Shown one piece after another: positions 19,434-22,657 of a stretch of DNA of 64,000 nt. The stretch lies in the NCBI RefSeq assembly GCF_003334385.1, contig NZ_QOWN01000019.1; one strand, given 5' to 3'. The stretch's first letter is position 1. Each line of letters starts with the position of its first letter. The position numbers and the translations under genes are program-made. The notes beneath the pieces were generated by a model, which saw only the letters and a program-made list of their open reading frames with translations, was not told the DNA's origin and did no database searches. The stretch is from Escherichia coli (GTDB taxonomy: Bacteria; Pseudomonadota; Gammaproteobacteria; Enterobacterales; Enterobacteriaceae).

Positions 19434-20642
19434 ATGACACCTTCAAATTATCAGCGTACCCGCTGGCTGACACTCATCGGTACTATCATTACCCAGTTTG
19501 CGCTGGGGTCGGTTTATACCTGGAGCCTGTTTAATGGCGCGCTTTCCGCCAAGCTGGATGCGCCGGTAAGCCAGGTCGCTTTCTCTTTCGGCTTGTTAAG
19601 TCTGGGGCTGGCAATTTCGTCTTCTGTTGCGGGCAAATTACAGGAACGTTTTGGCGTTAAACGCGTCACCATGGCTTCCGGCATTTTGCTGGGATTAGGC
19701 TTCTTCCTGACAGCGCATTCTGACAACCTGATGATGCTGTGGTTAAGCGCCGGTGTGCTGGTGGGACTGGCAGATGGCGCGGGTTATCTGCTGACGCTCT
19801 CTAACTGTGTGAAGTGGTTCCCGGAGCGTAAAGGTCTGATCTCCGCGTTCGCTATCGGTTCTTATGGTCTGGGTAGCCTGGGTTTCAAATTTATCGACAC
19901 GCAGCTGCTGGAAACGGTCGGTCTGGAAAAAACCTTTGTGATTTGGGGAGCGATTGCGCTGTTGATGATTGTTTTCGGCGCAACGTTAATGAAAGACGCA
20001 CCAAAACAGGAAGTGAAAACCAGCAATGGTGTGGTGGAGAAAGATTACACGCTGGCAGAGTCGATGCGTAAACCGCAGTACTGGATGTTAGCGGTAATGT
20101 TCCTGACCGCCTGCATGAGCGGCCTGTACGTGATTGGGGTAGCGAAAGATATCGCCCAAAGTCTGGCACACCTTGATGTGGTTTCCGCAGCCAATGCAGT
20201 CACTGTTATTTCCATCGCCAACCTTTCAGGTCGTCTGGTGCTGGGTATTCTGTCTGACAAAATCGCCCGTATCCGTGTTATTACCATTGGTCAGGTGATA
20301 TCGCTGGTGGGTATGGCGGCCCTGCTGTTTGCACCATTGAATGCAGTGACGTTCTTTGCAGCGATTGCCTGCGTGGCATTTAACTTTGGCGGCACTATTA
20401 CCGTCTTTCCGTCACTGGTCAGTGAGTTCTTTGGCCTCAATAACCTGGCGAAAAACTACGGTGTGATTTATCTCGGTTTCGGTATCGGTAGCATTTGTGG
20501 TTCGATTATCGCCTCACTGTTTGGCGGCTTCTATGTGACCTTCTACGTGATTTTCGCCCTGCTGATTCTGTCATTGGCGCTTTCTACGACGATTCGTCAG
20601 CCAGAGCAGAAAATGTTGCGTGAGGCGCATGGCTCCCTTTAA
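19434..20642 (+). CDS. yhjX: MFS transporter, oxalate/formate antiporter-like, pyruvate-inducible (402 aa)
   Basis: Start MTPSNYQRTRWL at 19434; 12 predicted transmembrane helices. Confidence 0.9.
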   Translation: MTPSNYQRTRWLTLIGTIITQFALGSVYTWSLFNGALSAKLDAPVSQVAFSFGLLSLGLAISSSVAGKLQERFGVKRVTMASGILLGLGFFLTAHSDNLMMLWLSAGVLVGLADGAGYLLTLSNCVKWFPERKGLISAFAIGSYGLGSLGFKFIDTQLLETVGLEKTFVIWGAIALLMIVFGATLMKDAPKQEVKTSNGVVEKDYTLAESMRKPQYWMLAVMFLTACMSGLYVIGVAKDIAQSLAHLDVVSAANAVTVISIANLSGRLVLGILSDKIARIRVITIGQVISLVGMAALLFAPLNAVTFFAAIACVAFNFGGTITVFPSLVSEFFGLNNLAKNYGVIYLGFGIGSICGSIIASLFGGFYVTFYVIFALLILSLALSTTIRQPEQKMLREAHGSL

Positions 20643-20726
20643 TGCTCAGCCGCGAGCTACTGGGCTTCAGCTTCCGTGTGCATCAAACGCATCAACGAAA
20701 TGTATAAACAATGACTCGTAAAATTT

Positions 20727-20750
20727 GGGCCAATTAACTGGCCCTTTTTA
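20727..20750 (+). terminator. Rho-independent terminator of yhjX
   Basis: GGGCCA-ATTAAC-TGGCCC followed by TTTTTA. Confidence 0.7.
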
Positions 20751-20965
20751 CTGCTTTTTGTAACGCTAAAGTCTCTTTTCAAACTTGCATTTTTGTAAAT
20801 TTGTGCTTCATGCACACTCTTTCCCCACACTTTTTCCCTTTGCTGTGGTCTACTTATTCGCGCGTGTAGATTTTACTTATCTGACTACCTCCGCACTTTT
20901 TCCCTGCCGGGCCTGAAAAGCCACTAAGCAGGGTGTTATCACCTGTTTGTCCAGGGTTTGTTTGC

Positions 20966-22657
20966 ATGAGATACATCAAATCGATTACACAGCAGAAGCT
21001 GAGCTTTTTGCTTGCAATCTATATTGGCCTTTTTATGAATGGCGCGGTTTTTTACCGCCGCTTCGGCAGCTATGCGCACGATTTTACCGTCTGGAAAGGC
21101 ATTTCTGCTGTTGTTGAACTGGCCGCCACCGTACTGGTGACCTTCTTTTTACTACGTCTTCTTTCGCTGTTTGGCCGCCGCAGCTGGCGTATTCTGGCAT
21201 CGCTGGTGGTGCTCTTTTCCGCAGGTGCCAGCTATTACATGACCTTCCTTAATGTGGTCATTGGTTATGGCATCATCGCTTCCGTCATGACCACCGATAT
21301 CGACCTGTCAAAAGAAGTTGTTGGTCTGAACTTTATTCTCTGGTTAATCGCCGTTAGTGCATTGCCTCTTATCCTTATCTGGAATAACCGCTGTCGCTAC
21401 ACCTTGCTCCGACAACTGCGAACCCCAGGGCAGCGTATTCGCAGCCTGGCGGTCGTCGTACTGGCGGGTATTATGGTTTGGGCACCGATTCGTTTGCTGG
21501 ATATCCAGCAGAAGAAAGTGGAGAGGGCGACCGGCGTTGATTTGCCGAGTTATGGCGGTGTCGTAGCGAACTCTTATCTGCCATCAAACTGGCTTTCTGC
21601 GTTGGGGCTGTATGCCTGGGCGCGGGTCGATGAATCTTCCGATAATAATTCATTGCTTAATCCGGCGAAGAAATTCACTTATCAGGCACCGCAAAACGTT
21701 GATGACACTTATGTCGTGTTTATCATCGGTGAAACCACGCGTTGGGACCATATGGGTATTTTCGGCTATGAGCGTAATACCACGCCGAAACTGGCCCAGG
21801 AGAAAAATCTGGCGGCGTTCCGTGGTTACTCCTGTGATACCGCAACCAAACTCTCACTGCGTTGCATGTTTGTACGTCAGGGGGGCGCGGAAGATAATCC
21901 GCAGCGCACATTAAAAGAACAGAACATTTTCGCGGTTCTGAAGCAGTTAGGATTCAGTTCTGACCTCTACGCTATGCAGAGCGAAATGTGGTTCTACAGC
22001 AACACGATGGCGGACAACATTGCTTATCGTGAGCAGATTGGTGCGGAGCCACGTAATCGTGGCAAGCCGGTAGATGATATGTTGCTGGTAGACGAAATGC
22101 AGCAATCGCTAGGGCGCAACCCGGATGGTAAGCATCTGATCATTCTGCATACCAAAGGTTCGCATTTTAACTACACCCAGCGTTATCCGCGTAGCTTCGC
22201 GCAGTGGAAGCCGGAATGTATTGGTGTTGATAGCGGCTGTACCAAAGCGCAGATGATCAACTCCTATGACAACTCGGTGACCTATGTGGATCACTTTATC
22301 TCCAGCGTGATTGATCAGGTTCGCGATAAGAAAGCGATTGTGTTCTACGCAGCTGACCACGGTGAGTCAATTAATGAACGCGAGCACCTGCACGGCACGC
22401 CGCGTGAACTGGCACCGCCGGAGCAGTTCCGCGTACCGATGATGGTCTGGATGTCAGATAAATATCTGGAAAATCCGGCCAATGCGCAGGCGTTTGCGCA
22501 GCTGAAAAAAGAAGCCGACATGAAAGTGCCACGCCGTCACGTAGAGCTGTACGATACCATCATGGGTTGTCTTGGCTATACTTCACCGGATGGTGGAATT
22601 AACGAAAACAACAACTGGTGTCACATCCCGCAGGCAAAAGAGGCAGCGGCTAACTAA
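20966..22657 (+). CDS. eptB: Kdo2-lipid A phosphoethanolamine transferase (563 aa)
   Basis: Start [12 protein letters not shown] at 20966; N-terminal membrane domain plus sulfatase-type catalytic domain. Confidence 0.9.

Follow-up and report, generated by a model that had tools for sequence, protein, structure and literature searches.

The spacer between yhjX and eptB, the gene for Kdo2-lipid A phosphoethanolamine transferase, holds a short motif that occurs twice close to the start of eptB. The question raised by this locus is whether the two copies represent one regulatory element that is used twice. A preliminary description of this DNA had proposed a repeated site for a protein or an sRNA, or a promoter duplication. 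We examined the spacer within a 64,000-nt stretch of Escherichia coli DNA, referred to here as the window. Our conclusion, to which we assign a probability of roughly 85%, is that the copies represent two distinct eptB elements, both already characterised, and that the 12 bases they share in the K-12-type allele coincide by chance. The positions, geometry, conservation, covariation, absence of sRNA complementarity and population frequencies given below were computed here; the literature supplied the start of transcription, its dependence on sigma-E and what Hfq does at AU2.

Identity of the repeat and its chance expectation

The bases around the repeat are the same as those of E. coli K-12 MG1655, so that positions can be converted (window coordinate = 3731441 - MG1655 coordinate). 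RefSeq annotation of identical DNA agrees that the gene is eptB, and the motif does lie in its promoter and leader region. The features of the region are collected in Table 1.

The direct repeats 66 bp apart upstream of eptB were borne out, at the coordinates originally given, as an exact 12-mer, CACTTTTTCCCT, which is present in the spacer at 20828-20839 and again at 20894-20905 (66 bp from start to start). The 15-nt forms around this shared 12-mer are CCACACTTTTTCCCT (20825-20839, copy 1) and CCGCACTTTTTCCCT (20891-20905, copy 2). The related copy noticed just before them also exists, as the degenerate CACACTCTTTCCCC at 20813-20826, and a repeat search included it in a 20-nt repeat family (D1) with an identity of 75%.

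No other exact direct repeat of at least 12 nt within 100 nt occurs in the whole 64-kb window. At least one such 12-mer pair was found in 25% of first-order Markov simulations of the window, and the probability of such a pair inside the 323-nt spacer by itself was approximately 0.0055. The repeat is locally unusual, yet it is unremarkable, and not beyond chance, for a scan of 64 kb. When up to two mismatches were allowed, the motif had 13 matches in the window compared to 5.8 expected.

Table 1. Coordinates of features in the yhjX-eptB region of the window
Feature	Position	Strand	Basis
yhjX CDS, upstream neighbour	19434-20642	+	RefSeq annotation of identical E. coli DNA
Terminator-like hairpin GGGCCAATTAACTGGCCC and T run, 3' of yhjX	20727-20749	+	Terminator scan
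Conserved block ATGCACACTC, E. coli version of GATCACAYTC, about -50 to -41	20810-20819	+	71-sequence alignment
Copy 1, CCACACTTTTTCCCT, -35 to -21, promoter DNA outside the mapped transcript	20825-20839	+	Sequence and published start
Sigma-E-type -35, CACACTTTT (consensus GGAACTTTT)	20826-20834	+	Rhodius 2006 consensus; conservation
Sigma-E-type -10, TGGTCTACT (consensus (T/C)GGTCAAAA)	20846-20854	+	Consensus; conservation
eptB transcription start	20860-20862	+	Kwiatkowska 2018 numbering; Adams 2021 oligonucleotide
AU1, AUUUUACUUAUCU, uridine-rich SL1 loop, +11 to +23	20870-20882	+	Kwiatkowska 2018
Copy 2, CCGCACUUUUUCCCU, +32 to +46 of the eptB 5' UTR	20891-20905	+	Sequence and published start
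AU2, ACUUUUU, single-stranded Hfq-binding tract, +36 to +42	20895-20901	+	Published probing and mutagenesis; MFE fold
SL2 hairpin; outer stem 20903-07 with 20928-32	20903-20932	+	RNAalifold; MFE fold; published probing
MgrR base-pairing region over the AUG (20966-68)	20954-20975	+	16-nt duplex windows; published site
eptB CDS, Kdo2-lipid A phosphoethanolamine transferase	20966-22657	+	ATG at 20966; annotation
3' end of a stable eptB 5' fragment, by Term-seq	20977	+	Adams 2021 supplement; MG1655 3710464

The transcription start separates the two copies

Kwiatkowska et al. 2018 (PMC6239178) worked with eptB133, which comprises the 133 nt at the 5' end of the mRNA and in which AU1 spans +11 to +23 and AU2 spans +36 to +42. 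As the AU1 string is found at 20870-82 and AU2 at 20895-901, +1 corresponds to 20860. The oligonucleotide JW10412, used by Adams et al. 2021 for cloning the eptB 5' UTR, begins at 20862. Whether the start is 20860 or 20862, copy 1 is in promoter DNA and copy 2 is in leader RNA. The copies thus straddle the mapped start, with copy 1 upstream and copy 2 downstream of it, and the leader is 106 nt long.

The 3' end detected by Term-seq for a stable 5' fragment of eptB is located 11 nt inside the open reading frame, immediately after the MgrR pairing site. This fragment of about 116-118 nt (Adams 2021) holds copy 2, AU1, AU2 and SL2.

Copy 1 and the proposed -35 element of a sigma-E promoter

Rhodius et al. 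2006 described sigma-E promoters by the motifs GGAACTTTT and (T/C)GGTCAAAA, with a preferred spacer of 16 nt, a discriminator of 5 or 6 nt and a purine start; the -10 element follows the -35 at a distance of 15-19 nt, mostly 16. In the eptB promoter, CACACTTTT (20826-34) agrees with the -35 consensus at 6 of 9 positions, and TGGTCTACT (20846-54) agrees with the -10 consensus at the same number, with TGGTC matching exactly. The spacer, counted from the equivalent of GGAACTT, is 16 nt, the preferred sigma-E length. The TCTAC core of the -10 (20849-20853) ends 6 nt before G20860 and 8 nt before G20862, both of which are purines.

Conservation was assessed with eptB loci from 80 Enterobacteriaceae species representatives, 70 of which have this promoter and were aligned with the window, giving 71 sequences. 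In this alignment both ACTTTT (20829-34) and T.TGGTCTACT (20844-54) were invariant or at least 90% conserved, and GGTCTACT of the -10 region was invariant or nearly so. The TCCCT tail of copy 1 varied freely and remained pyrimidine-rich, CCCT being unconstrained spacer.

The likeness to the sigma-E promoter model of Rhodius 2006 thus covers the ACTTTT part of the -35, the 16-nt spacer, TGGTC in the -10, a 6-nt discriminator and a purine start, and eptB is a published member of the sigma-E regulon. Differences are that the eptB -35 starts with CAC rather than GGA, that its -10 has TCTAC instead of TCAAA or TCTGA, and that the CCCT part of the repeat belongs to no promoter motif. That eptB transcription depends on sigma-E is established in the literature and is stated in reviews, with citation of Moon 2013 and Klein 2011. 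A literature search for yhjW together with sigma E gave no paper, and Rhodius 2006 does not mention yhjW. Taken together, the consensus and geometry, the published start, the conservation and the published sigma-E dependence suggest that these hexamers are the sigma-E contacts.

Copy 2, the Hfq site AU2 and the SL2 stem

By structure probing, AU2 is single-stranded and lies between SL1 and SL2 (Kwiatkowska 2018). Mutations in AU2 lower the Hfq-dependent formation of the MgrR-Hfq-eptB ternary complex (Kwiatkowska 2018), and mutations in both AU1 and AU2 weaken repression by MgrR in vivo (Kwiatkowska 2018, citing Schu 2015). AU1 is dispensable for Hfq-assisted annealing in published data.

In the MFE fold calculated here, +36 to +43 was unpaired and 20903-07 was paired with 20928-32. 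RNAalifold also recovered SL2 from 21 leaders of Escherichia, Citrobacter, Salmonella and Intestinirhabdus, and 5 of the 10 pairs in the hairpin show compensatory changes. The last CCU of copy 2 forms the 5' side of the SL2 outer stem. Since this CCU is in the SL2 stem and the U-run is at the Hfq site, the former is constrained by structure and the latter by Hfq. Across the 71 sequences, conservation in this part of the leader was confined to G20893 and to 20905-06, the T and the G in the CCUG at the start of the stem, and the stretch between G20893 and 20905 was U/A-rich and not conserved in sequence.

Copy 2 can be compared with the U-rich Hfq sites of class II sRNA targets, such as eptB AU2 and ygdQ AU2 (Schu 2015, Kwiatkowska 2018). 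It holds the published AU2 itself, in a tract that is single-stranded, 5' of the MgrR site and beside a stable hairpin. It differs in that the repeat runs past AU2 into the linker (CCGC) and the SL2 stem (CCU), and in that the same letters in copy 1 are outside the mapped transcript. A single-stranded, U/A-rich tract 5' of the MgrR pairing site is what copy 2 provides; copy 1 does not fit, being upstream of the start.

A model for the two copies

In the model that we favour, ACTTTT of copy 1 would serve as the -35 element for sigma-E (RpoE), 16 nt upstream of the -10 TGGTCTACT, and the following CCCT would be pyrimidine-rich spacer. In copy 2, AU2 is bound by Hfq, which keeps the mRNA in place during annealing of the class II sRNA MgrR over the start codon, and translation is repressed by MgrR; the CCU of this copy is the first strand of the conserved SL2. 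The copies would resemble each other because both functions need an A-C-T/U run followed by pyrimidines, and the match is exact in the K-12-type allele because of a single base at 20901 (C versus T). We infer that the exact identity itself has no function.

The suggestion that sigma-E and MgrR act through the motif holds to the extent that sigma-E would use ACTTTT in copy 1 and the MgrR/Hfq pathway uses ACUUUUU in copy 2; it does not hold as a proposal of one common site.

Conservation of the repeat among relatives and E. coli strains

For each species, the 12-mer at the copy-1 position was matched against that species' own leader and the best match was taken. Among the 71 sequences, only the window allele gave a match of 12/12. 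The other Escherichia had 10/12 at the same position and two Citrobacter had 9-10/12. In the remaining species the best match was 7-9/12 and was mostly elsewhere in the UTR, for example in the pyrimidine-rich stretch before the start codon. Local similarity between promoter and UTR was at the level of chance over the 71 sequences (median p 0.46), and a gapped 46-nt promoter/UTR alignment with p of about 0.02-0.03 was obtained for the K-12 allele only.

Within the species, copy 2 was CACTTTTTCCCT in 1,658 of 5,426 complete E. coli genomes and CACTTTTCCCCT in 3,683. Copy 1 ended in TCCCT in 3,817 of these genomes and in TCGCT (CGCT) in 1,502. The 12/12 identity can be present in no more than 31% of these complete genomes; ACUUUUC is found in copy 2 of 68% and CGCT in copy 1 of 28%. 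The polymorphic sites are 20901 (T/C, in AU2) and 20837 (C/G, in the copy 1 spacer). Sampled strains carried CCCT with U4C, CGCT with U4C, or the K-12 type, and the two variants did not always occur together. From this frequency and the mixed haplotypes it follows that the exact repeat is a minority state that hinges on one polymorphic base, 20901. Strain GN4738 has a divergent allele in which the -35 and -10 are kept and the repeat is absent. The repeat is thus not conserved in the relatives represented by the 71 sequences and is a minority state even within E. coli.

The published AU2, ACU5, is the K-12-type allele and therefore a minority form in the species. We also considered that the identity is more than mere coincidence, either because copy 1 is transcribed in some condition and acts as a second Hfq site, or because the U5 (31%) and U4C (68%) alleles of AU2 set different levels of repression by MgrR and Hfq. 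We regard this as unlikely. In the second case, U5 and U4C would constitute a natural polymorphism in the regulation of LPS modification.

The window EptB (20966-22654) shares 89-90% identity with the Citrobacter amalonaticus and Salmonella proteins. Its identity is only 78-80% to the proteins from E. albertii, E. whittamii, Escherichia sp. E1V33 and a species representative labelled 'E. coli' (L041, L049, L060 and L078; 1501-3189). The promoter and 5' UTR are nearly identical to those of the window in L041, L049 and L078, and visibly more diverged in E. albertii (L060). In GN4738 the whole promoter and leader are diverged and the EptB protein is 99.6% identical to that of the window. This discordance between protein and leader identity, in the sister Escherichia and in GN4738, suggests that the eptB locus is a mosaic with a recombination breakpoint near the start codon.

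Recent duplication or conversion as a possible source of the identity

The repeat might instead go back to a small tandem duplication or gene conversion that took place recently in the lineage of E. coli and covered about 66 bp, part of the promoter included; as a repeat it would then have no present function. Two of the probabilities given above speak against coincidence, namely the value of about 0.0055 for the spacer by itself and that of about 0.02-0.03 for the K-12 alignment. The latter, against Markov-1 nulls, belongs to a gapped local alignment of 20793-20839 with 20864-20905 that has a score of 16, and the 75% identity of the 20-nt family (D1) points in the same direction. However, an equal alignment score is attained by about 1% of neighbouring segment pairs across the window. 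In the sister Escherichia, whose promoter and UTR are almost the same as those of the window, promoter and UTR do not resemble each other significantly (p 0.3-0.8). Each element is conserved in its own right, at a fixed position, in 71 species and is on this evidence older than E. coli, and the exact match rests on the single polymorphic T/C at 20901. A recent micro-duplication or conversion accordingly retains only a small share of the probability. An ancient duplication was rejected on the basis of the promoter-versus-UTR alignment in the 71 species, in which similarity was at chance.

Pairing with sRNAs

Whether the motif could be a pairing target for MgrR, ArcZ or another sRNA was assessed with the MG1655 sequences of MgrR and ArcZ. 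Duplexes were evaluated in 178 windows of 16 nt, unrestricted RNAduplex having given unrealistically long ones. The best duplexes with MgrR (-17 to -19 kcal/mol) were at +94 to +116, across the AUG, in agreement with the published site. Copy 1 ranked 158th and copy 2 ranked 42nd of the 178 windows for MgrR, and the corresponding ranks for processed ArcZ were 166th and 133rd. The longest exact complement to the motif in MgrR or ArcZ was 6 nt, short of the 7-8 contiguous bases of an sRNA seed target. With complements of at most 6 nt and duplex ranks of 42 to 166 of 178, the proposal of an sRNA binding site is not upheld for MgrR and ArcZ.

Some observations are compatible with such a target, or with copy 1 being transcribed, from an upstream start or by read-through from yhjX, as an extra Hfq site. 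The mRNA whose leader contains copy 2 is regulated by sRNAs, MgrR and the 5' portion of ArcZ have a 6-nt complement (GGAAAA or GAAAAA), and a genomic-SELEX peak for the RpoS holoenzyme has been reported in the eptB/yhjX spacer (Shimada et al. 2017). Against them stand the position of the best MgrR duplexes over the AUG and the low ranks of the copies. In addition, a terminator-like hairpin follows yhjX, and from there to copy 1 we found no sigma-70-like promoter; a simple sigma-70 promoter scan found no site in the whole yhjX-eptB spacer. We consider pairing or an additional Hfq site very unlikely.

A possible second promoter at copy 2

Copy 2 could also be the -35 of a second, downstream sigma-E-like promoter, which would produce a leader of about 40 nt that escapes control by Hfq and AU2. 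The candidate elements are CGCACTTTT and GCCTGAAAA with a 15-nt spacer. In a naive consensus count, copy 2 combined with CTGAAAA scores 12/18, the same as the mapped promoter, but this score is reached at 166 places in the window. In the candidate -10 a G replaces the C of the consensus TCAAA; the element also lacks GGTC and lies within the variable, non-conserved loop of SL2. The starts used by the two independent studies are 20860 or 20862 only. As no conserved sigma-E -10 follows copy 2, we consider a promoter duplication with a second promoter here very unlikely.

Possible direct-repeat sites for a single transcription factor

Finally, both copies, perhaps with the degenerate third one, could be direct-repeat DNA sites for one transcription factor of eptB. 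Three related pyrimidine-rich copies are indeed present in 90 bp, and a conserved block lies just upstream of the -35. Operators of response regulators, for example PhoP boxes, are likewise short direct repeats upstream of an envelope-modification gene. Unlike operators of the PhoP-box type, the eptB repeats have no helical-phase spacing, the second copy is not conserved, and the copies straddle the start. The copies are spaced irregularly, by 13 and 66 bp, and vary independently within E. coli, and conservation of copy 2 at the DNA level is limited to Escherichia and some Citrobacter. The literature reviewed on eptB regulation gives no such regulator. The earlier proposal of a repeated site for one protein is not supported by these comparisons, since one copy is present only as DNA and the other as RNA, with 6-7 nt constrained in each for different reasons, and we judge a single shared factor highly improbable.

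Other features of the spacer

Most of the 71 species share two conserved blocks 5' of the -35: TTTGTAAAT at 20792-20800 (about -68 to -60) and GATCACAYTC at 20810-20819. The E. coli version of the latter, ATGCACACTC, overlaps the degenerate third copy CACACTCTTTCCCC, and in E. coli an inverted repeat, TGTGC-N5-GCACA, is present at 20803-20817. The conserved blocks could be UP-like elements or a regulator site.

TTTTTGTAA forms an exact 9-nt direct repeat (20755-20763 and 20790-20798, 35 bp apart; family D3) between the yhjX terminator and the eptB promoter, which is possibly due to chance. A 43-codon open reading frame at 20785-20916 contains both copies in one frame; it was rejected as a candidate, as its first codon precedes the start of the transcript and the region shows no conservation of a coding sequence. 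An Rfam scan of 20000-21500 returned nothing relevant, its single match being isrG within yhjX (E = 0.48).

In some E. coli, the genes for long polar fimbriae, lpfC, lpfD and lpfE, are directly upstream of eptB in place of yhjX (loci L084, 1-2252, and L085, 1-2487; window about 20700-20727). Strain F200 keeps the terminator-like hairpin though lpf genes replace yhjX upstream, and its junction is just 5' of the hairpin at 20727-44.

Implications for eptB regulation

The regulation of eptB, which involves sigma-E, Hfq, MgrR and ArcZ, has been studied in depth, each half of the repeat corresponds to an element already described, and nothing new is added here. The outcome is a clear negative, with no new repeated operator or sRNA site, together with precise coordinates for the elements that control eptB. 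As the AU2 of K-12 (ACU5) is the minority allele of the species, this could matter when Hfq-binding measurements are extrapolated to other strains.
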